From the sequence record PZ445517.1: a stretch of 64,000 bases of DNA; one strand, written 5' to 3'. Under the pieces are notes generated by a model, which worked only from the letters and a program-made list of their open reading frames with translations, made no database searches and was not told where the DNA came from. Position numbers and translations under genes: made by a program. Origin of the DNA: a phage. Positions 1,117 through 28,677 of the stretch are shown piece after piece. Each line of letters starts with the position of its first letter. Position 1 is the first letter of the stretch.

Positions 1117-2797
1117 TCTTAGCTAAACTAAATCTACCAACTTTTTCCATCTGAATATGCTGACCATATTCTTGTGGGTCATGGTCTTTATGTGAAATTA
1201 TGAAGAAGTTGGTATCCTTCAAACCATCTAAAATTTTAGCTACATTTTTAATACCTTCAGCATCAAATGCACCGTCATACACTTCATCAAGAAATAAACA
1301 ACTTATTTTAACACCTGAAACTTTTTCAGCAATATCACGCCAAGTAAATAAAAGAGCAATATCAATTCGCGCTTTTTCACCTTGACTGAATGAAGCATAA
1401 CTAAAATCTTCACGACCACGGGATTTAATTGTCTCATTAAATTCTTCATCTAATGTAAACACATAATCCGCTTCCATTATTTTAAGATAATGGTTAATCT
1501 GCTTATTAAATAATGGAATGTACTTTTTAATAATAGCACCTTTAATACCAGAATCTTTGAGCATATCAGTCAAAATTCCTCGGTGGTATTTTTCCATTAC
1601 TAAATTAGTTTTTGTCTTAACAATTTTATCAAGTTCTTCTTGAAGCAGTGCTATTTCATCAGCATGGTCAATAAACTCAGAAGATGCTTTTTCTATAGCT
1701 GCTTTAACTTTTTTAGCTTTATCTACTGTCGTGATTAGAGATTGCTTTTTATTGCGAATATCATTTGCTAACGACTGCTGGGTTTTAATATTATCTCGGT
1801 ATTCATCAACAAGAACTTTTAAATTATCACGGTGTGTTGAAAGCTGTTCAAACGAATGCGTACATTCAGAAACTTTATCTTTAATTTTAGAAACAACTTT
1901 ATCACCGGAACTTAATTGTGACAAGCAGGTTGGACATAATCCACCTTCGTGATACATATTAATGACTTTATTATACGAGTCAATTTTTGATTTAATTAAA
2001 ACTGCTTCTTGACCGATTTTATTAAATGCATCAGTCGGGTCTTCATCTAAAACAATATTAACTAATCTTTCATTAGCTTCTTCTATTTCCGATTTTAGCG
2101 TTCTAGCTTCTTTTGCCAAATCATCATACATATTTTGAAGACGAGTAAGGTTGTCACCCGTTAATTTTTTCTGGCGTTCAACGTTATCATTATATATTTT
2201 AATTTGTTGGATAATACTATCTTTTTTAACATCAAGCACTTGGTTTTGTGAATTTAATTCACGTATTAGCGCTTTATTAAGCTTATCCATTTCAGCTAAT
2301 GTTCCTACCTCAAGCAGGTCTTCCACAAGCTTTCTTCGCGCAGGGGTCGACAAACCCATGAAAGGGGTATACCCTGCTGTACCAAGAACAACAATCTGCT
2401 TGAAACTGGCATATGACATTCCGATAAGCTGTTCAAATTCTGCTTGGAAATCTTTACTGCTGGCAGATTCATTAAGACGTGTACCGTTAACGGTGATTTC
2501 GAAAACGTTTGGTTTTTGTCCTCTTTTGATATAGTACTTTTTCTCATCATATTCCATCCACAATTCAACTAAAAGTTCTTTCTTATTTGTGCTGTTTATT
2601 AATTGACCTTTCTTTACATCACGAAATGGCTTGCCAAAAAGCCCAAATGTGATGGCTTCTAACATAGTAGACTTACCACCGCCATTTCGGCCAGTAATAA
2701 GAGTTTTTTGAACCTTATCTAATTGAATGTCAATAGGATTTCCACCTACTGACATTATATTTTGATACCTAACTCGGTTTAGTTTAAAATTCTTCAC
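1109..2797 (-). CDS. 46: gp46 recombination endonuclease ATPase subunit (Rad50/SbcC-like)
   Basis: 562 aa; Walker A GRNGGGKST, long coiled-coil, CPTC zinc hook, C-terminal FLDEVYDGAFD; GTG start with AAGGAA SD. Confidence 0.95.
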   Translation of the reverse strand: MKNFKLNRVRYQNIMSVGGNPIDIQLDKVQKTLITGRNGGGKSTMLEAITFGLFGKPFRDVKKGQLINSTNKKELLVELWMEYDEKKYYIKRGQKPNVFEITVNGTRLNESASSKDFQAEFEQLIGMSYASFKQIVVLGTAGYTPFMGLSTPARRKLVEDLLEVGTLAEMDKLNKALIRELNSQNQVLDVKKDSIIQQIKIYNDNVERQKKLTGDNLTRLQNMYDDLAKEARTLKSEIEEANERLVNIVLDEDPTDAFNKIGQEAVLIKSKIDSYNKVINMYHEGGLCPTCLSQLSSGDKVVSKIKDKVSECTHSFEQLSTHRDNLKVLVDEYRDNIKTQQSLANDIRNKKQSLITTVDKAKKVKAAIEKASSEFIDHADEIALLQEELDKIVKTKTNLVMEKYHRGILTDMLKDSGIKGAIIKKYIPLFNKQINHYLKIMEADYVFTLDEEFNETIKSRGREDFSYASFSQGEKARIDIALLFTWRDIAEKVSGVKISCLFLDEVYDGAFDAEGIKNVAKILDGLKDTNFFIISHKDHDPQEYGQHIQMEKVGRFSLAKIS

Positions 2798-3057
2798 AAA
2801 AGATTCCTTTTAATGTATCTTTTAGACCATTCTATCATATCATCATAATCTAAAAAGTATTCATCAAATTCAGCCATGCAAACAACACCTTGTGCTGCTT
2901 TTGATGTGATATAAATTATTCCAACATATCTAGAATCTTCTTCGGTATAATCAATATTTGCTATGAATTCATCATTAATGTCAAATGTCGAAAACTTCAC
3001 AGTATGCATCCTTAATACAAGATACAGCCATATCTCGTAATGATTTAGGTGTGTCAT
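2794..3057 (-). CDS. hypothetical protein (46.1 position)
   Basis: track ORF between genes 46 and 47; start may be an internal Met. Confidence 0.45.
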   Translation of the reverse strand: MTHLNHYEIWLYLVLRMHTVKFSTFDINDEFIANIDYTEEDSRYVGIIYITSKAAQGVVCMAEFDEYFLDYDDMIEWSKRYIKRNLL

Positions 3058-3244
3058 TATCTAAAATGTTGAAGTTAAAAGATACAGCCCAGTCAGTGCA
3101 GACTGTAACCTTTTTAATACAATTATCTTCAACCTCTAGCGGTTCAAACCAATATTCAATAATTTCTTTATGACCAATATCATCTTTTACTTCGCATTCA
3201 AAATGCTGACTCATCATAACATTTTTAAATTCATCAAAAGTCAT
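2981..3244 (-). CDS. hypothetical protein (46.2 position)
   Basis: track ORF; stop overlaps next gene; acidic small protein. Confidence 0.45.
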   Translation of the reverse strand: MTFDEFKNVMMSQHFECEVKDDIGHKEIIEYWFEPLEVEDNCIKKVTVCTDWAVSFNFNILDNDTPKSLRDMAVSCIKDAYCEVFDI

Positions 3245-4260
3245 TGTGTTGCCTCTACATATAGCTGATTCGCATATTGAATAAGTGCTTCACGGTCAGA
3301 ATCAGTGATGTCTGGAATTGCATTAATGTATTCTTCCATCAACGTCTGAAGAGATTGAACTTCAACTTCTTCACTTTCATCTGACTCGACAGAGTTATCA
3401 ATTTTTGACACAACTCGTAATGAATGCACAACTTTTTCTAGTTCAGATTCGAACTTCGTCAGATTTTTGTCTACCTCAGTTACTATAACACGTACTGATA
3501 GATTTGTAAAATCTTTATAGTCAATTTTTCCTTTAAATGGATAATGAATTCTACGATGCCAGGTAGTATTGTTTGGAATAAATTCCATTCGTTCTGTTTC
3601 TGTATCAAACATCCAGAACCCACGAGGGTCATTCTCGTCACCTGCAGTTAGTGTCCATGGTGTCCCAATATATCTGACGTTAGCAGCCTCAGAGATAGTA
3701 TGGAAGTGACCAGACCACACTTCTTTATAAGTCTTAAGGAAATCAGGTTCAAGACCATGAGATTTCATTCCTTTATAAAAATAAAATCCGTTCAGTTCCC
3801 AGTGACCAACGCAAAAAGAAGCAGATGAAGTTTTGATGTGTTCAAGAATTTCACCAGTATTTTCTTCACACATCCAAGGAATTAAATCAATTAAACATCC
3901 GTCAAAATCTACTGTAGTAGGCTTATCATACACTTTAACATTAGGATATTTAGCCAAAAGCTCAGTAGAGGCATTTGGATGCATTACATTTTTATAGTGG
4001 AGATCGTGATTTCCTACAATAGTATGTAATGTAATTCCAGCATCATCAAGCGTTTGAACTATTTCACGAGCGAACTCCATAGTTTTATGTGTGATTGCTT
4101 TTCGCACATCAAAAATATCACCATATTGAATCCATACAGTAATTCCATTTTTCTTAGAATATTCTATCGCTTGCTTAATTCCATCAATTTGAATACCGCG
4201 AATCCACTCATCATCGGCTTTAACGCCTAAATGCCAATCACCTAAATTTAAAATTTTCAT
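3241..4260 (-). CDS. 47: gp47 recombination endonuclease nuclease subunit (Mre11/SbcD-like)
   Basis: 339 aa; phosphoesterase motifs GDWHLG, GDIFD, GNHD, GHFH; ATG verified at 4258-4260. Confidence 0.95.
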   Translation of the reverse strand: MKILNLGDWHLGVKADDEWIRGIQIDGIKQAIEYSKKNGITVWIQYGDIFDVRKAITHKTMEFAREIVQTLDDAGITLHTIVGNHDLHYKNVMHPNASTELLAKYPNVKVYDKPTTVDFDGCLIDLIPWMCEENTGEILEHIKTSSASFCVGHWELNGFYFYKGMKSHGLEPDFLKTYKEVWSGHFHTISEAANVRYIGTPWTLTAGDENDPRGFWMFDTETERMEFIPNNTTWHRRIHYPFKGKIDYKDFTNLSVRVIVTEVDKNLTKFESELEKVVHSLRVVSKIDNSVESDESEEVEVQSLQTLMEEYINAIPDITDSDREALIQYANQLYVEATQ

Positions 4261-4438: not shown

Positions 4439-5639
4439 ATTTTGTAATAATGTCAAACTGTTCTTTAAAGCAGAAGCTTGAATCTTGATGCTGATACAAA
4501 AATTCATATGCTTTTTCTCGCTCACGGTCATAAAGAGCTCGGTCAGATGACAGTTCTTTAATACGTTCAAATGTTGATTCCATATCATTTTCATCAAACC
4601 AAATGATACCGCTATCATGCGAGGTCAAAGGAGTATTATCAACACGGAATTTTAAATTTTCGCCAGTAGATTTCCAAAATACCGGAATTGTTCCACATGC
4701 ACCAAGCTCGAGATGAGTATATTCTAAAGAACGTTGTAGATATTTTTTGTCCAACTTACTCAGCTGATAACCAAATCCGGATTTACTCATGCGTTCAAGC
4801 ATTTCGCTATTTACATAACGGTCAAGAATTTGCGTTGGCAAATTAGGAGCAATTTTAATTTGGTCTACTTGATGAAGACGATAATACTCGTATGGAATTC
4901 CTTTTTCTTTAATAGGAATGAACGCTGGAGAACGTTCCAGACCTTCCATAATAGTACTTAGTCCTGCAGGTTTAAGATGTTTTTCGTGAAAATCAAACAT
5001 CTGATAAAAACCTTTCCATGTAGTCGTACGACCAATCCAACGGTTGATATTCATGTTAATTTCAGAAACATCTTTCCAGTAGGTTGACCGAACCTTCGCA
5101 ATATCCATAGGAGGCTGAAAGTTATATACTGTCGGTGCTTCTTCAATATCATCAAACAGAGAAACTGTTTCTGGATACCATTCTTTCATCAGAACTTTAT
5201 TAAAATCGCCATTATCAGAATGACTAAAAATAACATCAGCTCGACGAACAGTTTCTTCTAATCCCAAATTTCGGCGCAAAGAAAGAGAAGAATGGTCATG
5301 TTGATAAACTACAACACGAACAGAAGGTTTAATGTTATCAATAATTTTTTTATAGTTATTAATAGTGTCTTCTTCAACCGAAGTAGCAGGAACTGAATTG
5401 ATAATTAGAATATCACAATCATTTACCAGCTTAAGTGTTTTATCATATTCTTTTGCCAATAAAACCGGAATTGAAAATGATTTATAATCATGCGCGCAAT
5501 TACGAGTAAATGATTTATCTTTAGCATAAACCAAAGTTACTTCATGACCATTTTTAATAAACCAATCACGTTGCTCAAGAGAAAATTTAGTTACACCACA
5601 ACCTTCAAGACCTCGAGCCATAAAAATACATACTTTCAT
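4437..5639 (-). CDS. a-gt: DNA alpha-glucosyltransferase
   Basis: 400 aa, matches my recall of T4 AGT (FMARGLEGCGVTKFSLEQRDWF...); ATG verified. Confidence 0.92.
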   Translation of the reverse strand: MKVCIFMARGLEGCGVTKFSLEQRDWFIKNGHEVTLVYAKDKSFTRNCAHDYKSFSIPVLLAKEYDKTLKLVNDCDILIINSVPATSVEEDTINNYKKIIDNIKPSVRVVVYQHDHSSLSLRRNLGLEETVRRADVIFSHSDNGDFNKVLMKEWYPETVSLFDDIEEAPTVYNFQPPMDIAKVRSTYWKDVSEINMNINRWIGRTTTWKGFYQMFDFHEKHLKPAGLSTIMEGLERSPAFIPIKEKGIPYEYYRLHQVDQIKIAPNLPTQILDRYVNSEMLERMSKSGFGYQLSKLDKKYLQRSLEYTHLELGACGTIPVFWKSTGENLKFRVDNTPLTSHDSGIIWFDENDMESTFERIKELSSDRALYDREREKAYEFLYQHQDSSFCFKEQFDIITK

Positions 5640-5690
5640 TTAATATCCTCTTTGTTTTGGTTTATTTTACCAAAAATTTATAAAGCAATA

Positions 5691-7211: not shown

Positions 7212-7481
7212 TTATCTAAGTAAACAGTATGCTTGGAATACTTTTTCCATCATCTTTTTAAATTCATGAATATCTATATAATGACTAGTTAGATCAGCAT
7301 GATATAAAAAGTCTAAAAACTTTTCATGTGTGCTAACATATTCGCTTTCATTTAATTCAGAAACATGGCTTTCCCAATATCCAACACCAGTCTTATTTGG
7401 GAAAAATGAAATTTTCATGCATTGATCAACATAGAAAATGCCATAATTTTCAATAGTAATAGAAATATTAATAAATTTCAT
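7212..7481 (-). CDS. hypothetical protein (89 aa)
   Basis: track ORF, 55.x interval. Confidence 0.45.
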   Translation of the reverse strand: MKFINISITIENYGIFYVDQCMKISFFPNKTGVGYWESHVSELNESEYVSTHEKFLDFLYHADLTSHYIDIHEFKKMMEKVFQAYCLLR

Positions 7482-7693
7482 ACATTCATCAGCTTAGCCG
7501 CTCCAAGAGCTGCATCTAGTGAATCAAATTGGTCAACATATTCAATCAATTCGCCGTAATTGGCATATAACCACCATTGGCTAAATTCATACTCAAGGAT
7601 GAATCCATTTCCTTCAATTTGAGTTAAACCAATGTCATTTGTATTTACTTCATACCCAGCGAGACGTAAATCGTTAATAAGAGCTTCGTTCAT
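7478..7693 (-). CDS. hypothetical protein (71 aa)
   Basis: track ORF; stop overlaps next start. Confidence 0.45.
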   Translation of the reverse strand: MNEALINDLRLAGYEVNTNDIGLTQIEGNGFILEYEFSQWWLYANYGELIEYVDQFDSLDAALGAAKLMNV

Positions 7694-22187: not shown

Positions 22188-23201
22188 TCATTTATAATAA
22201 CTTCGGTGGTTTTCAAGATAAACCCTCTCAAGGAAGTCATCCCAGAAACCCATGTCTACTTTTTGCTGCATACCGTTTTTAGAAGCTTCAATGGATGCTG
22301 CTTCTACTTGATCGACAACATCTTCCAAAAACTCTTGAACCGTTTTAAATGGATGTTTACCCAACTTCACGTCGAGAATAAATGGAGCATCTTGGAGTGG
22401 ATAAACCAAGTCACCAGTTTTGTAAATTTCCAATAGTTGGAGCCCGCCACGGCAAGCATGACTTAGAGCTTTCCAATCAATGCCTTCATTCGCTTCAGCT
22501 TTACGAGCGCGTTCACCATATTCAGCATCAAGTTTATTCAAAGACTGCTTAAGCTCAATAAGAGAAAGCGTTGTCTGATATTTACGACCCAACACAGTAT
22601 AGAACGTTTGCGGGCCTGTTTTCTCATGATTATGGAATACCCATTCGCAGAATTCGTTTTCTGGAAGACGGTGTTTAATATCTGCAATTTTAGTACGACG
22701 TTGTCCTTGTGTTCCATCTTCTCGGTAATCAACCCACTGATCGGGGATTTGATTAACTACTTTCAATACATCACGCAATGCGGCCAAACGAGAACCCTTA
22801 ACACCATATTTAGAAGCTTGCTTGCGGACATATCCTAAATAGGATTTCATGTTAGTCGTATAAAAACGAGAACGATTGTCTTGGATAAATTTCCACACAT
22901 CAGGTAAATCAGATTTAACCACTAGTTCAGGTGGAGTGTGAAGCATATCCAATGCTACAGTTTCACCATCTGCTGCTAATTTAAAGAAATACTTAAGACT
23001 GTATAGTTCATGGTCAATATCATCTTTAGTGTTTTTAGATGATGTGTTGTTAGTGTTTTTACTCATATGCTCTTTAACATTTCCGATAAGAATATCGCGA
23101 GCAGGAGGAACAAAGATTTCTTTAAAATCCACATCAGATTCTGGAGTAGAAGTTCCATAAAGATGACTACCAAAATAGCTTTTCATTACTGTTTTCATCA
23201 T
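22188..23201 (-). CDS. nucleotidyltransferase-fold protein (Pol-beta-like NTase motif)
   Basis: GSHLYGTSTPESDVDF matches the GS...D.D NTase signature; 337 aa; ATG verified. Confidence 0.6.
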   Translation of the reverse strand: MMKTVMKSYFGSHLYGTSTPESDVDFKEIFVPPARDILIGNVKEHMSKNTNNTSSKNTKDDIDHELYSLKYFFKLAADGETVALDMLHTPPELVVKSDLPDVWKFIQDNRSRFYTTNMKSYLGYVRKQASKYGVKGSRLAALRDVLKVVNQIPDQWVDYREDGTQGQRRTKIADIKHRLPENEFCEWVFHNHEKTGPQTFYTVLGRKYQTTLSLIELKQSLNKLDAEYGERARKAEANEGIDWKALSHACRGGLQLLEIYKTGDLVYPLQDAPFILDVKLGKHPFKTVQEFLEDVVDQVEAASIEASKNGMQQKVDMGFWDDFLERVYLENHRSYYK

Positions 23202-23659
23202 TCAGCCTTATATTCAATAACAGGACATACTTTAGCTTTACGAGCTTTTAAAAATTCGACGATAATAGACTTCTTGGGTTGAATAGGAGGTAAACCTTTA
23301 TACGCCCTATCAATATTTTCTACATGTAAAGCATAATCCTTTTTCCATTTATAATCTTTATATTTTTCATGCAGTTGTGCAGGAATAACAAATGAACCAA
23401 TAATAAGTAAAACAAGCAAAATGGCAAGTATAAATGCTGATGGAATAAGAGTCCATAAACTACTAAAAATAAGCCAACGTTGTAAACTTTCTGCGCAGAT
23501 AATAGTTAGACCTGCGAGTATAGTACATCCAAAAACAGAAACGAAGAATGTAGGAATGGCAATAGACCAAAAATATGCACACAGTGTCTTAGGTCGTTTC
23601 CATTCATCATTAAACATTTTGAATAATTTATAATGCCAAGAGCTTTCATTAATAATCAT
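23198..23659 (-). CDS. integral membrane protein (153 aa)
   Basis: several hydrophobic helices; ATG verified. Confidence 0.5.
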   Translation of the reverse strand: MIINESSWHYKLFKMFNDEWKRPKTLCAYFWSIAIPTFFVSVFGCTILAGLTIICAESLQRWLIFSSLWTLIPSAFILAILLVLLIIGSFVIPAQLHEKYKDYKWKKDYALHVENIDRAYKGLPPIQPKKSIIVEFLKARKAKVCPVIEYKAE

Positions 23660-23661
23660 AA

Positions 23662-24183
23662 TTATCCTTTCATTGAAGGTGTAACAGTTGTTAAATACTT
23701 AATCATAGCTTCAGCTTCTGATTTTGATAATGAAATTTCTCCATTGTTTTGACGAATAGAAATAAAATCAGGGTGACGGTCACCACCAGCTTTCAAAACA
23801 CACATATAGGTATCAGTTTCATCTTCAATATTTGAAATGATTGAAGCAGTTCCGCATGAATGCGGTTTTTGATAAATCAATACAGCTTTTCTTCCGCCAT
23901 TTGACTGTTCATAAACTTTTAATACATCAAACAAATCACTTCTTTTATCAATAGCTAAAATGTTATTTTCATCTTCAATGTTAAATCCTTCGGATACTTC
24001 ATAAAGTGTCACCCATAAATCGTCAATATCAATAACAGCGTTCACTTTTCCATGACTTTCAAGAGCATGACAAATTTTCTTGATTTCGTCATAACTCATT
24101 TTAATAATATCATCTCCTTGAATAAGGAAGATGTCATTTTTAAATTCAACACGAATTAAACCGCTTCCACTTGAAATAAACAT
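23662..24183 (-). CDS. hypothetical protein (173 aa), paralog of 24190-24735
   Basis: C-terminus EAEAMIKYLTTVTPSMKG resembles EAIALKTYLDSVIPTMISK in neighbour. Confidence 0.5.
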   Translation of the reverse strand: MFISSGSGLIRVEFKNDIFLIQGDDIIKMSYDEIKKICHALESHGKVNAVIDIDDLWVTLYEVSEGFNIEDENNILAIDKRSDLFDVLKVYEQSNGGRKAVLIYQKPHSCGTASIISNIEDETDTYMCVLKAGGDRHPDFISIRQNNGEISLSKSEAEAMIKYLTTVTPSMKG

Positions 24184-24189
24184 ATTTCC

Positions 24190-24735
24190 TCACTTTGAAA
24201 TCATAGTTGGAATGACAGAATCAAGATAAGTCTTTAGCGCAATAGCTTCGTCTTTGGTAAATGTAACAATATGTGATCGAAAATCGTCAATTTGGCGAAT
24301 AGTTAAGACATCTCCCTCTTCATAACATTTTGATACATTTAAAAGAGTTTCATCATTCTGATTGCAAGCGTTAGTAATAATAGCATTGCAATTTTTGAGC
24401 CATTTTAAACTATGTTTTCTTTCATTAGAATAATAAAAATATTTAATCTTATCTATAAAACTATCCCAATGGATAACTGATAAGCATATTGACTCGCTTT
24501 CAATATTAAATCCTGGGCATGAAGAATAAAAATGAATTTTATGCTCATCATTAATGCTTACAATTTTATCAGTATAAGGATTTTCAATTTTGGTTAAATG
24601 AATGATTTCACTAGGCGTAAAATACAGCATATCGTCTTCTTGTGTCAAACGATACATATTATTTACTTTTTCTATAGCCAATTCACCAAAAAGTGAACTA
24701 ACTTCTAATACTAATCGTTTCGCCGCTACCGTCAT
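24190..24735 (-). CDS. hypothetical protein (181 aa), paralog of 23662-24183
   Basis: shared C-terminal motif with neighbour; ATG verified. Confidence 0.5.
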   Translation of the reverse strand: MTVAAKRLVLEVSSLFGELAIEKVNNMYRLTQEDDMLYFTPSEIIHLTKIENPYTDKIVSINDEHKIHFYSSCPGFNIESESICLSVIHWDSFIDKIKYFYYSNERKHSLKWLKNCNAIITNACNQNDETLLNVSKCYEEGDVLTIRQIDDFRSHIVTFTKDEAIALKTYLDSVIPTMISK

Positions 24736-24865: not shown

Positions 24866-24900
24866 TTACTATACCATAACCTTGCCAACTTGTAAACCAT
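24866..24900 (-). promoter_or_regulatory. T4-type early promoter
   Basis: minus strand GTTTACA - 17 nt - TATAGT. Confidence 0.55.
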
Positions 24901-25062
24901 TAAATGACGTTTTCGATAAAATTCTGAAGCTTTGTATGAGCATCAACCATGATTTTCATTTCTTCCTTTGCGAAAGCTGTACCTCTTTCACGAGAAGAAC
25001 ATTCATAGTCAGAAACTGCATTAGCATATTCTTCAATTAGCTTCATTAAAAACATCTGCTTT

Positions 25063-25257
25063 TCAGTTTTCATTATTCCACCTAATCATTTCAAGATATT
25101 GAACTAACTTAGCTTTGGATTTATCCAAATCCTTTTTAGCTGCTTCTATACCGTCGTATGAATATCCTTCACAATGCTCAACTGCTAATTGATATGAATC
25201 TATTTCAATATCACGTGCTAATTTAATGATTTTTTCAAACTGTTCGCGTGTTAGCAT
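25063..25257 (-). CDS. small helical protein (64 aa)
   Basis: track ORF; same small-protein family as 25260-25463, 27274-27462, 27459-27644. Confidence 0.4.
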   Translation of the reverse strand: MLTREQFEKIIKLARDIEIDSYQLAVEHCEGYSYDGIEAAKKDLDKSKAKLVQYLEMIRWNNEN

Positions 25258-25259
25258 AC

Positions 25260-25463
25260 TTAAACTCTCGTATTATGATCGATAATTTCATCAAGAAACA
25301 TATCTAACGCTTCTACAGCATTATTAACTTTATCTTCAAGTTCTTCAATACTTTTATTTGCAATGCCTGACGAAAACCAAGCAAAGTCACTAAGTTCCTC
25401 ATCTGCTTTACGAATTAAAGCTACCAATTCCTTAATTTTATCCGCTTGTTCGATACTAATCAT
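25260..25463 (-). CDS. small helical protein
   Basis: trimmed to ATG at 25461-25463 ([13 protein letters not shown]) overlapping the upstream stop. Confidence 0.4.
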   Translation of the reverse strand: MISIEQADKIKELVALIRKADEELSDFAWFSSGIANKSIEELEDKVNNAVEALDMFLDEIIDHNTRV

Positions 25464-25651
25464 TATTCCACCACATATGAAAGAGAGAATATTGCACACG
25501 CCATGTGAGTTGCAACTTCATCACACATATTATAACGTTTCTTAAGAAATTCTACAAGTTCTTCACTAGTAACTTCATCCATGTCGACGAAAAAATCACC
25601 ATTAATGATGACGTAGATATTTCCTTCTTGATTAAGTGCTTCAATTTTCAT
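25463..25651 (-). CDS. hypothetical protein (62 aa)
   Basis: trimmed to ATG at 25649-25651 ([13 protein letters not shown]); track extension is promoter translation. Confidence 0.45.
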
Positions 25652-25675
25652 GATGTTCTCCTCTTTATCCGATAG

Positions 25676-25712
25676 TTGTATAGTACCACAGCTCAAACGG
25701 AAAGTAAACCGG
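25676..25712 (-). promoter_or_regulatory. T4-type early promoter
   Basis: minus strand GTTTACT - 17 nt - TACTAT. Confidence 0.55.
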
Positions 25713-25722
25713 TAAAATGAAA

Positions 25723-25744
25723 AAAGTCTCCCGAAGGAGACTAA
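25723..25744 (-). terminator. intrinsic terminator (UCUCC-UUCG-GGAGA + U-run)
   Basis: plus agtctcccgaaggagact after the stop of ORF 25747-26133. Confidence 0.5.
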
Positions 25745-25746
25745 TG

Positions 25747-26133
25747 TTATTCGAGGGAAAGAAGATACTTACTCTGGTAAAACATTCCAGTAATATCATC
25801 TATCGTGCTTTGGATGGCTGGAGGCATTTCTTTATAAATGCTGTTAGATTGGTCTAGTATGTGATCAATCATTTTAATTGTGTCGGTAGGAAGTTTACTG
25901 GCATCTGGAATTGAAGGTGTGTATTTTCTACCAGAATACCCCAAATATTGCTCACCAAATTTATCAATCAAATCTGGCAACTCGGAGAAAATAAAATCGT
26001 ATGCTTTGTGTCTAGCATAACTTTTAGTTTCAAAATGTGCAGAATGAAAATAAGCTTGTGCAGCCATTAATAAACCTAAGTATTCATCTGCCTTTGAAGG
26101 TTTTCCACTTTGTGAAAAGTCGCTGAATTTCAT
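25747..26133 (-). CDS. hypothetical protein (rI.-1 position)
   Basis: 128 aa; immediately downstream of rI; ATG verified. Confidence 0.55.
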
Positions 26134-26423
26134 TCAGTCTCCAATTTAATGTTCATAATTCTAGCGTATGATTGTGCCATCTCCGCGCCTCGCTCTATAC
26201 ATTCAAAATCAGAAGAGCACGGGTCATTTTTATAGGTCGTTCTCATAAAACTATAGAATTGTTCAGACGATTCTACGCTTTTATTTTCAAAAAGCATATA
26301 AACGTGCCTAATACCAGATTCCATAAATTTATCAAAATGAGGATCGACATTCGCTTCAATCGGTGGAGATAAAACAAATGACAATCCTAGCATGGCAAAT
26401 AGTGCCGTTGCTTTTAAGGCCAT
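26130..26423 (-). CDS. rI: RI lysis-inhibition regulator (periplasmic antiholin)
   Basis: 97 aa; signal-anchor N-terminus; near-identical to my recall of T4 RI. Confidence 0.93.
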   Translation of the reverse strand: MALKATALFAMLGLSFVLSPPIEANVDPHFDKFMESGIRHVYMLFENKSVESSEQFYSFMRTTYKNDPCSSDFECIERGAEMAQSYARIMNIKLETE

Positions 26424-26435
26424 AAAGGCCTCCTA

Positions 26436-26648
26436 TCATTTTTGTCCTGTATTTACTTTATGCCGATGCACGGCCTTAACTTTATCAAGGTATTTTTCAA
26501 AATTTCGCAATCTAGTATAGTCTGCCGGAGATTGGTTGAGTGATACTTCTCGACGCAAAGCTGAAATGATATTTCCAACTTCCCTACGAATTTCATCTAA
26601 TTGAAGCACAGTAAGATTGCGAAGTTGCTTTTCAGTTAATTGTAGCAT
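26436..26648 (-). CDS. hypothetical protein (70 aa)
   Basis: track ORF; ATG verified. Confidence 0.5.
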
Positions 26649-26690
26649 ATATACCCCTTTAGTTAGATAAACCTATTTATAACTTTTGCA

Positions 26691-27272
26691 CTAACCGAGC
26701 TTTTTAGTTAATTCATTCCAATGTTTTCTACACAAAGAAACATAAATTTCATCACCAATACAGATTTGATTACCTTCTTTAACTGGTGATCCATCTTCCA
26801 TTAATCGAGCTGTCATAATCGCTTTTTTACCACAATGACAAACTGCCTTTAGTTCAATAAGTTTATCTGCAATCGCTAAAAGTTCTTTAGAACCTTCAAA
26901 TAATTTTCCAGCGAAATCAGTCCTTAGCCCATAAGCCATAACAGGAACATTATATGTATCAACAATTCGGCTCAATTGATGCACCTGTTCAGTTTTTAAA
27001 AACTGAGCTTCATCTACAAATACGCAATGAATATCTTTTTGTGCTTCAGCCCATTTATAGAACTCGAAAATATCCATATCATCTGTAATAATATTCGCTT
27101 CCTGCTTAATTCCAATGCGAGAAACGACTTCACAGACAGAATCGCGAGTATCAATAGCAGGCTTAAGAACTAATACACTCATTCCACGTTCTTTATAATT
27201 ATGTGCAGCAGTCAAAAGAGAAGCAGATTTTCCAGCATTCATTGCTGCATAAGTAAAAATTAAACTCGCCAT
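26691..27272 (-). CDS. tk: thymidine kinase
   Basis: 193 aa; Walker A AMNAGKSASLL; C-terminal zinc cysteines; ATG verified. Confidence 0.95.
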   Translation of the reverse strand: MASLIFTYAAMNAGKSASLLTAAHNYKERGMSVLVLKPAIDTRDSVCEVVSRIGIKQEANIITDDMDIFEFYKWAEAQKDIHCVFVDEAQFLKTEQVHQLSRIVDTYNVPVMAYGLRTDFAGKLFEGSKELLAIADKLIELKAVCHCGKKAIMTARLMEDGSPVKEGNQICIGDEIYVSLCRKHWNELTKKLG

Positions 27273-27273
27273 T

Positions 27274-27462
27274 TTAGTCCTTAGTTAAATTTTCTAAATA
27301 TGTTTCTAAATCATTTTCAGCTTTATCGATAGATTTTACTAATTCGTAATATGTTTCGGCATCTCCATAATCAGAAGATAATTCAAAAGACAAATCCTTT
27401 TCTAAACTAATAATTTCACCAACTAAAAATAATATTTCGTTCTTTTGTTCGCGAGTAATCAT
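27274..27462 (-). CDS. small helical protein (62 aa)
   Basis: tandem paralog of 27459-27644 (shared EQK..L..L..EI pattern). Confidence 0.45.
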   Translation of the reverse strand: MITREQKNEILFLVGEIISLEKDLSFELSSDYGDAETYYELVKSIDKAENDLETYLENLTKD

Positions 27463-27644
27463 AAGGAATTTATATAATTAATAAGTTCTTGTTCTTTATT
27501 ATCGAATTCTTTAGAAAGTTCTTCGTACTCGTTTGCATTAAAAGGACCGCATTCATCACAAACTTTTTCCAATTCACTATTTTTATCCATAATTTCGTGG
27601 ATAAGAGAAAAGAGTTTGTCTTTTTGTTCTTTGCTTAGGCTCAT
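27459..27644 (-). CDS. small helical protein (61 aa)
   Basis: tandem paralog of 27274-27462; ATG verified. Confidence 0.45.
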   Translation of the reverse strand: MSLSKEQKDKLFSLIHEIMDKNSELEKVCDECGPFNANEYEELSKEFDNKEQELINYINSL

Positions 27645-27814
27645 ATATTAATTTCCAGAAGTTTTAAAATAATTCGCTTTTGCTTAAATATTTCCACAGT
27701 TAAATGATCAGTATCTTTTTGACCAATTCCAATGGCAAAACCTTTATTAACAGCGAGTTCAATTAAATTATCAAGTTCACGTAACACTTCATATTGTAAC
27801 TCAGAACTATTCAT
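27641..27814 (-). CDS. hypothetical protein (57 aa)
   Basis: manually translated MNSSELQYEVLRELDNLIELAVNKGF...; start and stop both in ATGA overlaps with neighbours. Confidence 0.35.
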   Translation of the reverse strand: MNSSELQYEVLRELDNLIELAVNKGFAIGIGQKDTDHLTVEIFKQKRIILKLLEINI

Positions 27815-28023
27815 TTCGGTTTACCTTCTTTAACGAAATCAGGATAAGGATAAAATCCTGAATAAAATCCTTCACCTTTATGATTGATGCATCCTTTATT
27901 AGAACAATAGCACCAATAATCGAAATCACAAGCCATTTCATCGTTGCATAAAGCAAAAACAACCGGCCACTTACACTTTTCACAGTGGGCATTTTTAAGA
28001 ATACTAGTTTGGCTCATAACCAT
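27811..28023 (-). CDS. cysteine-rich small protein
   Basis: track start is TTG; trimmed to ATG (MVMSQTS...); 10 Cys in 70 aa. Confidence 0.5.
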   Translation of the reverse strand: MVMSQTSILKNAHCEKCKWPVVFALCNDEMACDFDYWCYCSNKGCINHKGEGFYSGFYPYPDFVKEGKPK

Positions 28024-28226
28024 GTAACCTTTAAGCAATATTCTTCTACATGTTGTTTACGACCTTTCTTATCAATAAAGGTATATTCAACGAATGTTCC
28101 AATGTAGTCTTTATCTACATCATGTGGACTATTAATTGGGCATTTAGTACGGCAAATGCGTTCCCATTGACGAATAATTACTGCTTTGTTTTTAGGATCA
28201 AACGGATGCGGGTAATGTACTTTCAT
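28014..28226 (-). CDS. hypothetical protein (70 aa)
   Basis: track ORF; ATG verified. Confidence 0.5.
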   Translation of the reverse strand: MKVHYPHPFDPKNKAVIIRQWERICRTKCPINSPHDVDKDYIGTFVEYTFIDKKGRKQHVEEYCLKVTWL

Positions 28227-28677
28227 AATCCACCACTATTAAATCAATATCAGGAGTAAACATGTCGATTAATTTAGAAACCTTATCCCAATCGCCGCCA
28301 GCAATACCACAACCTATGCGTGGAATGTAAATTACCGGTTTAAACAAAAGGGTTTCTGCCTGTAGATTTAATTCTATCATGCAGTTTACTAAAGCACCAT
28401 AATCAAGATTAGGACCCGGTTCGTATTGCGTATACAAATTATAGCATATACTAAATCCTGTGGGATTATGTTTAAAAACAATAGACATATCGCCTAATTT
28501 ATCACGAGAACCGTACTCGGTAGTGGTTTTATCTATTTCTAAAATTTTGGGATAGGCTCTTGCTAATTGACCCGCTACGCCAGAGCCCATTGTGTGGAAG
28601 CAATTGCACCCGTGCGCAATAATATTACCTTGAAGAAATAGGGCGACAATATCGCCCTTGATATATTTTACAATCAT
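28198..28677 (-). CDS. macro-domain protein (ADP-ribose binding/processing fold)
   Basis: 159 aa; N-terminal ...IAHGCNCFHTMGSGVAG... and C-terminal GCGIAGGDW glycine motifs typical of macro domains. Confidence 0.7.
   Translation of the reverse strand: MIVKYIKGDIVALFLQGNIIAHGCNCFHTMGSGVAGQLARAYPKILEIDKTTTEYGSRDKLGDMSIVFKHNPTGFSICYNLYTQYEPGPNLDYGALVNCMIELNLQAETLLFKPVIYIPRIGCGIAGGDWDKVSKLIDMFTPDIDLIVVDYESTLPASV

Follow-up and report, generated by a model that had tools for sequence, protein, structure and literature searches.

The genes described here lie in a window of 64,000 nucleotides (nt) of phage DNA (sequence record PZ445517.1; the window is the whole stretch that was analysed, numbered from its first letter) and encode proteins of about 60 amino acids (aa) belonging to the family DUF7438 (Pfam PF24219). 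The window is that of a T4-type phage; over the 3.3 kb around these genes it shares 100% identity with Escherichia phage T4_ev240 and 98-99.5% with T6, JK38, and slur07. Four open reading frames (ORFs) that a preliminary description, made from the letters alone, had picked out at 25063-25257, 25260-25463, 27274-27462, and 27459-27644 do exist, all on the minus strand, and comparison with the annotated T4 reference identified them as mobD.3, mobD.4, tk.1, and tk.2, genes that sit between nrdC.11 and vs in the early region. They had been described as tandem pairs at two loci, which is right for the tk locus (tk.2 and tk.1); the mobD locus, however, carries a triplet (mobD.4, mobD.3, and mobD.2a), of which mobD.2a had been overlooked, and the window holds five DUF7438 members:

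24900-25073, minus strand: mobD.2a, 57 aa, DUF7438; shares 11 nt with the 3' end of mobD.3
25063-25257, minus strand: mobD.3, 64 aa, DUF7438
25260-25463, minus strand: mobD.4, 67 aa, DUF7438; its start codon overlaps the stop codon of mobD.5 by 1 nt
27274-27462, minus strand: tk.1, 62 aa, DUF7438; ATGA overlap with tk.2, and a stop codon 1 nt before the tk start codon
27459-27644, minus strand: tk.2, 61 aa, DUF7438; ATGA overlap with the upstream ORF 27641-27814

Against the 57-position PF24219 model, which has a gathering cut-off of 25 bits, mobD.3 scored 64.1, mobD.4 56.7, tk.1 56.2, tk.2 69.4, and mobD.2a 56.5 bits, with the match spanning model positions 1-57 in four of the proteins and 1-56 in mobD.2a. 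All five were single-domain proteins of 57-67 aa, within the size and architecture of DUF7438 (about 55-67 aa, two long helices, and a short loop), and in length and in N- and C-terminal motifs we found no difference between them and DUF7438, PHROG 653, or PHROG 2758. PHROG 653 matched mobD.3, mobD.4, tk.1, and tk.2, whereas mobD.2a was placed in a separate group, PHROG 2758; Pfam keeps all five together. The four ORFs and mobD.2a are thus a true paralogous family, one already catalogued in Pfam and PHROGs, and because both genes and family were already catalogued the novelty of the grouping is low.

Formal pairwise alignment, on the outcome of which the preliminary description had staked the existence of the family, gave significant similarity for several pairs, so the family stands; Pfam, a leave-one-out hidden Markov model (HMM), and shuffle tests all bear it out. 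In the pairwise test, where each Smith-Waterman score was compared with those of 2000 composition-preserving shuffles, Tk.1 and Tk.2 were the most similar pair (30% identity, z=8.6), followed by MobD.3/Tk.2 (z=7.3) and MobD.3/Tk.1 (z=6.4), and 0/2000 shuffles reached the score in any of these three comparisons. MobD.4 was weaker against Tk.1 (z=3.0, 26/2000 shuffles) and Tk.2 (z=3.4, 10/2000), and the neighbours MobD.3 and MobD.4 were not significantly similar in the pairwise test (z=1.2, 283/2000) and were joined through profiles only, as was MobD.2a to the rest of the family. Identity within a locus was no higher than between loci in the pairwise comparison. When each member was left out of the model in turn, it was every time the top non-training ORF among the 1185 ORFs of the window, with E-values of 1.5e-6, 3.7e-8, 1.6e-4, 0.012, and 0.12; the last two, for mobD.4 and mobD.2a, are marginal values from a model built on four sequences. 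An HMM of 28 family sequences, used in a six-frame scan of the whole T4_ev240 genome, recovered exactly the five members.

Three nearby ORFs were considered as further members and rejected. ORF 27641-27814, which falls inside the span of the preliminary description, had no Pfam match and an hhalign probability of 2.5%. For rI.1 (26436-26648) there was likewise no Pfam match, and although Tk.1, alone of the members, resembled it in the pairwise test (z=4.7, 2/2000 shuffles) the profile comparison was weak (hhalign probability 17.8%), which makes rI.1 at most a possible distant relative. No DUF7438 match was found for mobD.5 (PHROG 3024), with pairwise z of at most 0.3 against every member. Outside the window, a weak extra match (family HMM E=0.013) fell on a 76-aa ORF near the pseT and spanin genes (LR597657.1, 133843-134073), which begins MISWHQFEHLKGLI and ends LHDYIQSLVEKNK, has no Pfam match, and may be a distant, longer DUF7438 relative.

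The helical bodies ascribed to these proteins were borne out by AlphaFold2 models. Tk.2, the best-scoring member, was modelled as a two-helix hairpin with helices at 5-30 and 37-60 (predicted local distance difference test, pLDDT, 91), and MobD.2a, the most divergent, as a hairpin with helices at 4-30 and 36-56 (pLDDT 93); each of the five proteins is accordingly predicted to be an antiparallel two-helix hairpin of about 60 residues. In an alignment of 28 family sequences, on which the conservation and charge figures given here are based, the conserved N-terminus consisted of Met1, a hydrophobic residue at position 2 (28/28), and, where helix 1 begins, T (79%), E (89%), and Q (82%). The family-wide pattern reads M-(I/L)-T-x-E-Q, a cap, followed by a heptad I/L-x-x-L-(V/I)-x-x-I in which Leu14 is near invariant, and at the end of helix 2 the segment L-x-x-(Y/F)-(L/I)-E-x-(L/I) was conserved. 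In a hairpin these N-terminal and C-terminal segments are neighbours at the open end, whereas variation between subfamilies falls at the loop end and at solvent-exposed, mostly acidic positions; the length of the mobD.4 loop also differs among phages. The (S/T)xEQxxK(I/L)xxL pattern from which the preliminary description drew the family is thus a real conserved N-terminal element, though we read it as mostly a signature of the fold and not as a catalytic motif, with T-x-E-Q probably forming the helix N-cap.

Every strongly conserved position could be explained by the fold alone, as part of the hydrophobic heptad or the helix cap. Positions 11, 14, 15, 18, 54, 57, and 58 were hydrophobic in 96-100% of sequences, and beyond the a and d positions of the heptad, the e positions 15 and 58 were hydrophobic without exception, as was position 12 in 71% of sequences. 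The resulting hydrophobic stripe is wider than a lone hairpin needs, a hint that the hairpins may dimerise into a four-helix bundle or dock onto a partner. The acidic bodies that had been attributed to all of the proteins were confirmed for Tk.2, Tk.1, and MobD.4 (net charge -8 to -10), but MobD.3 (-3) and MobD.2a (-2) are only weakly so. Net charge was -2 to -11 in 27/28 aligned sequences, the range for the family being -11 to +1 with one basic member.

Searches for relatives of known function gave little beyond the family itself. We found no enzyme or other domain in the five proteins with Pfam, NCBIfam, or PADLOC, nothing meaningful in NCBIfam, PADLOC, or Rfam searches, and only generic or non-significant matches in a profile search of PDB sequences, which gave no link to a family of known function. 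A Foldseek search against viral models returned only uncharacterised proteins, the best E-values (1-17) being mostly from phages of Enterobacterales. The best solved-structure matches, CsoR/FrmR and ZraP, share the antiparallel helical hairpin geometry (template-modelling score, TM-score, 0.7-0.84), but with E of at least 0.87, identity of 3-17%, and no metal-binding residues conserved in DUF7438 the resemblance is generic. The ColE1 protein Rop (PDB 1ROP) is, like DUF7438, a helix-loop-helix hairpin, of 60-63 residues (Foldseek TM-score 0.82-0.86). Rop is a homodimeric four-helix bundle that binds RNA kissing complexes; for DUF7438 such a dimer is suggested by the heptad pattern alone. Homology to Rop was rejected, the hhalign probability being 0.06% in a comparison in which the Rop sequence matched PDB entry 1ROP, and Rop is a useful mechanistic analogy.

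At the mobD locus the three members follow mobD.5 in one unit, and the following features accompany them:

25463-25651, minus strand: mobD.5, 62 aa; heads the mobD.5-mobD.4-mobD.3-mobD.2a unit and lies outside DUF7438
about 25680-25709, minus strand: T4 early-type promoter upstream of mobD.5; TTTACT, a 17-nt spacer, and TGgTACTAT, the hexamers read by eye
25725-25742, minus strand: terminator-like hairpin with a 7-bp stem (4 G-C pairs) followed by TTTTTTCATTT; closes the upstream rI.-1 unit, directly before the mobD.5 promoter
25070-25082, minus strand: 13-nt GGTGGAATAATGA (ribosome-binding site and start codon) at the mobD.3/mobD.2a junction
25460-25472, minus strand: second exact copy of the 13-nt GGTGGAATAATGA, at the mobD.5/mobD.4 junction

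The mobD.5 promoter was missed by a simple scan because it scored 8/12. For mobD.4 we took the ATG start (67 aa) and not a longer ORF beginning with GTG, because the ATG overlaps the mobD.5 stop codon and homologues begin MISIEQ; mobD.3 follows after a gap of 2 nt. The two copies of GGTGGAATAATGA, at the start codons of mobD.2a and mobD.4, are 390 nt apart and flank mobD.4 and mobD.3. Two exact copies in 64 kb compare with 0.14 expected by chance, and 0/100 shuffles had two or more; the repeat may represent a ribosome-binding site in common, a relic of the register of duplication, or a recombination site. At the tk locus, tk.2 and tk.1 have ATGA overlaps without clear ribosome-binding sites, and these overlaps, together with the end of tk.1 a single nucleotide before the tk start, point to translational coupling.

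That these are early genes, as the preliminary description supposed, agrees with published T4 data. A transcript from the mobD.5 promoter, present 3 min after infection, served as a RegB-insensitive control (PMC1702504), and in T4 the RNAs of all five genes were classed as early; at the protein level MobD.3 and MobD.4 were early, Tk.1 and Tk.2 middle, and mobD.2a had no call (PMC9697503 supplement). The ratio of non-synonymous to synonymous substitution rates (dN/dS), calculated against RB7 and SP18, was 0.05-0.36 for every copy (0.11 for mobD.3 against RB7), and every copy is under purifying selection. A genome reduction that deleted nrdC.11 through mobD.3 left T4 viable (PMC9825161). In the HIDEN-SEQ transposon-sequencing preprint (10.1101/2025.11.20.689424), mobD.2a, mobD.3, mobD.4, tk.1, and tk.2 were non-essential in T4, as was tk itself, and the corresponding genes were likewise non-essential in phage Bas37. 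Among the comparisons consulted there, the adjusted p values were 1.0 for all five genes in the T4 library-versus-library control, for tk.1 and tk.2 in T4 on RexAB, and for the corresponding Bas37 genes on two clinical isolates, CFT073 and a second host, which by the order of the sheets is CFE299. If the five paralogues are redundant, single-copy knock-outs could miss a shared role. A literature search found no functional study of DUF7438 or of its T4 genes.

The family is a small one: when 1.84 billion representative proteins were searched with a profile, there were 38 matches at E of at most 0.001. The short ones (about 50-76 aa) were almost all family members, and a few long proteins also scored, most of them through several short matched stretches. 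Clustering separated at least eight subfamilies, and a subfamily was not tied to a locus; distinct subfamilies were conserved across genera. Among T4-like phages the copy number, counted as members in the stretch scanned, ranged from 2 to 5:

This window: five members
T4 reference (NC_000866): four intact members and a frameshifted mobD.2a
T4D (HIDEN-SEQ annotation): mobD.2a full length (174 nt)
RB7: tk.2 without tk.1; mobD.4, mobD.3, mobD.2a, and an extra member, RB7_101
Bas37: tk.2 without tk.1; mobD.4, mobD.3, and mobD.2a, as judged from gene order and lengths in its annotation
SP18, Yersinia phage P8, and CUA3: one copy per locus, tk.2 and mobD.3
Citrobacter phage Merlin: two at the tk locus, one of them unannotated, and a weak third

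The T4 reference gives mobD.2a (3997-4178 of the reference stretch) as 38 aa because a frameshift puts the two halves of the 57-aa protein in different frames; the gene is intact in the window and in RB7, and the frameshift is either a strain difference or a sequencing error. The unannotated Merlin gene (7370-7555 of its scanned stretch, between Merlin119 and Merlin118) encodes a 61-aa DUF7438 protein scoring 47.9 bits, and the members at the Merlin tk locus belong to subfamilies other than those of Tk.1 and Tk.2.

The tk pair had been called clearly a tandem duplication. Tk.1 and Tk.2 are indeed the closest pair, which fits, but a DNA-level repeat search found no long repeat between copies; recent duplication was ruled out on this ground, and a tandem duplication giving rise to Tk.1 and Tk.2 is therefore plausible but ancient, and not clear. 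Alleles have also been exchanged. Tk.2 of the window and Tk.2 of RB7 (5501-5686 of the RB7 stretch), both from Tequatrovirus genomes, were only 55.7% identical, with a saturated synonymous rate (dS) of 1.26 and dN/dS of 0.28, while the flanking genes were 96-100% identical; the tk.2 allele is an old one that came in by recombination, in a cassette-like replacement at the tk locus, and did not arise by fast local evolution. Two metagenomic proteins look like products of recombination deletions in wild phages: P0016 (50 aa), a chimera of the Tk.2 N-terminal helix and the Tk.1 C-terminal helix, and P0020, in which the N-terminal half of MobD.3 is fused to the C-terminus of NrdC.11.

Beyond T4-like phages, members with Pfam support were gp025 of Kuravirus SU10 (53 bits) and SB3_049 of Jerseyvirus SB3 (61 bits); no second copy turned up within the roughly 10 kb scanned around either. 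A tblastn search with the SB3 protein found 172 phage records, 170/172 of them Salmonella phages, and those listed had Jerseyvirus-sized genomes of about 41-43 kb. With the SU10 protein it found 249 records, of which 64 matched at 60% identity or more, those listed being E. coli phages of 69-79 kb; among the remaining weaker matches, those listed were T4-type genomes. These are three unrelated lineages of virulent enterobacterial phages that share hosts and little machinery, so that a partner of these proteins is more likely to be a host component than one specific to a phage, and we regard retention in the three lineages as our strongest argument for a host target. As a separate observation, SU10 encodes a macrodomain protein about 3.5 kb away from its DUF7438 gene.

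Based on these data, we tentatively favour, as a plausible reading still short of probable, that the family consists of partly redundant hairpins that bind a host factor stoichiometrically, with diversified specificity surfaces and possibly a counter-defence role. The hairpins would be accessory proteins without enzymatic activity, produced in the opening minutes of infection; their size of about 60 aa, the heptad pattern, and conservation explained by the fold alone favour binding over catalysis, and they would act through stoichiometric binding. The hydrophobic stripe (heptad positions a and d with the e positions 15 and 58) would pair two hairpins into a Rop-like four-helix bundle, or dock onto a helix of a partner, and the variable acidic surface would determine which partner is bound. 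The fast turnover of copies and alleles and the siting among proven counter-defence genes would make it the most likely job of these proteins to neutralise or redirect a host factor, possibly a defence protein, with paralogues that overlap in part or have specialised on different targets. The role in host takeover or anti-defence suggested at the outset is no more than a reasonable prior for the family. A more specific version, namely that the hairpins are inhibitors of a host defence or regulatory protein, exchanged horizontally among T4-like phages, Jerseyvirus, and Kuravirus, with the loop-end surface setting specificity and redundancy hiding single-gene effects, is possible but rather doubtful.

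Several points weigh against the host-factor reading. To date no partner, oligomeric state, or phenotype has been reported for DUF7438, the dimer or docking idea is drawn from the heptad pattern only, the solved-structure matches were generic helical hairpins (Foldseek E of at least 0.87), MobD.3 and MobD.2a are only modestly acidic, and the family includes one basic protein. Most genes of the T4 early region are small and accessory, which makes proximity to counter-defence genes weak evidence. In the transposon-sequencing data for T4 and Bas37, no single copy had a fitness effect on K-12 or in the conditional comparisons consulted, and in the DarTG2 screen reported there tk.4, which encodes the anti-DarTG2 macrodomain protein AdfM, was the sole hit, with no DUF7438 gene among the hits; the same preprint describes nrdC.1 as an inhibitor of Septu (10.1101/2025.11.20.689424). 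Dmd, AdfM/Tk.4, and NrdC.1, all known T4 counter-defence or host-takeover proteins, are like the DUF7438 proteins in being small, early, non-essential, and encoded in the same variable early regions, but unlike them have demonstrated targets, and we found no relation in sequence or fold.

Among other explanations, the family might act on the phage's own machinery, for instance by adapting or regulating thymidine kinase or another enzyme of nucleotide metabolism. In T4, RB7, SP18, Yersinia phage P8, and CUA3 the gene immediately upstream of tk encodes a DUF7438 protein, and Merlin has such a gene within 0.4 kb of tk; in the window the stop codon of tk.1 comes 1 nt before the tk start codon; and the Kuravirus SU10 member shares an operon with a deoxynucleoside monophosphate kinase and an exonuclease. 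The mobD locus, however, has no neighbour in nucleotide metabolism, the Jerseyvirus copy sits among small early ORFs without a tk gene, T4-like phages, Jerseyvirus, and Kuravirus share little replication or nucleotide-metabolism machinery, and tk is itself dispensable in the published screen, which together leave a role of this kind unlikely. Co-occurrence bears directly on another proposal, that adjacent paralogues (Tk.1 with Tk.2, and MobD.3 with MobD.4) form obligate heterodimeric four-helix bundles as the functional units. Adjacency and translational coupling favour equal amounts of the paired products, and the heptad pattern fits bundle formation, but Tk.2 occurs without Tk.1 in RB7, Bas37, SP18, P8, and CUA3, MobD.3 occurs without MobD.4 in SP18, P8, and CUA3, and Kuravirus and Jerseyvirus have a single copy in the roughly 10 kb scanned. 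Given unpaired copies in several phages, homodimers or monomers must suffice, and an obligate partner is disfavoured by the co-occurrence data and seems to us very unlikely.

Whether the charge of the proteins could itself be their function, as acidic mimics of nucleic acids, or as Rop-like binders of RNA or DNA, acting on nucleic-acid-binding proteins or on RNA, turns on what the family conserves. Three of the five proteins carry a net charge of -8 to -10 over about 60 aa, and Rop has equal size and architecture (TM-score 0.82), yet there is no sequence relation to Rop by hhalign, the Foldseek E-value was about 4, charge is not conserved across the family, and the conserved positions are structural rather than on a charged surface; we give this explanation little credence. 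The copies might also be relics of evolution that now do little, hitch-hiking in a region of frequent recombination and homing-endonuclease traffic. All copies are non-essential, pseudogene, chimera, and fusion variants exist, and the region gains and loses mobD and other ORFs; but purifying selection acts on every copy, MobD.3, MobD.4, Tk.1, and Tk.2 were detected as proteins in infected T4 cells (PMC9697503), and distinct subfamilies are conserved across genera, with the family kept in many Jerseyvirus-type and Kuravirus-type genomes. That the genes are mere passengers is correspondingly improbable, to about the same degree.

To our knowledge, more than 100 T4 early genes still have no known function, and several neighbours of the DUF7438 genes have recently proved to be counter-defence factors. 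The family is unusual in being present in multiple copies per genome, in varying in copy number among close relatives, and in being shared with unrelated virulent phages of the same hosts, and these traits make it reasonable to consider the family as a possible host-interaction module, one that would escape screens of single genes. What comes out for practical use is a target list of five genes, with their subfamilies and their conserved and variable surfaces.

The surroundings of both loci differ from the T4 reference. The homing-endonuclease gene mobD, which in the reference lies between nrdC.11 and mobD.1, is absent from the window (window 22188-24735 compared with 2430-3209 of the NC_000866 stretch), and at its position are a hydrophobic-looking ORF of 153 aa (23198-23659) and an extra y05I paralogue. 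The gene mobD.1 (181 aa) and an adjoining ORF of 173 aa, at 23662-24183 and 24190-24735 on the minus strand, are tandem paralogues that both match Pfam T4_y05I_N and T4_y05I_C ('y05I-like putative transcription factor'), and this pair is a second duplicated family adjoining the DUF7438 triplet. Between tk.2 and tk.4 (27641-28226, minus strand) the T4 reference has a single ORF and the window three: a 57-aa ORF (PHROG 3452), a 75-aa Phage_zn_bind protein (PF23895, 27811-28038), and the true tk.3 orthologue (DUF7202, 28014-28226). The macrodomain gene tk.4 follows at 28198-28677 on the minus strand, about 0.55 kb upstream of tk.2. Finally, homologues of mobD.4, mobD.3, and mobD.5 bear the public name 'molybdopterin-guanine dinucleotide biosynthesis protein MobD' in several records, including RefSeq T4 and E. 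coli assemblies, which looks like an annotation error derived from the gene name mobD.

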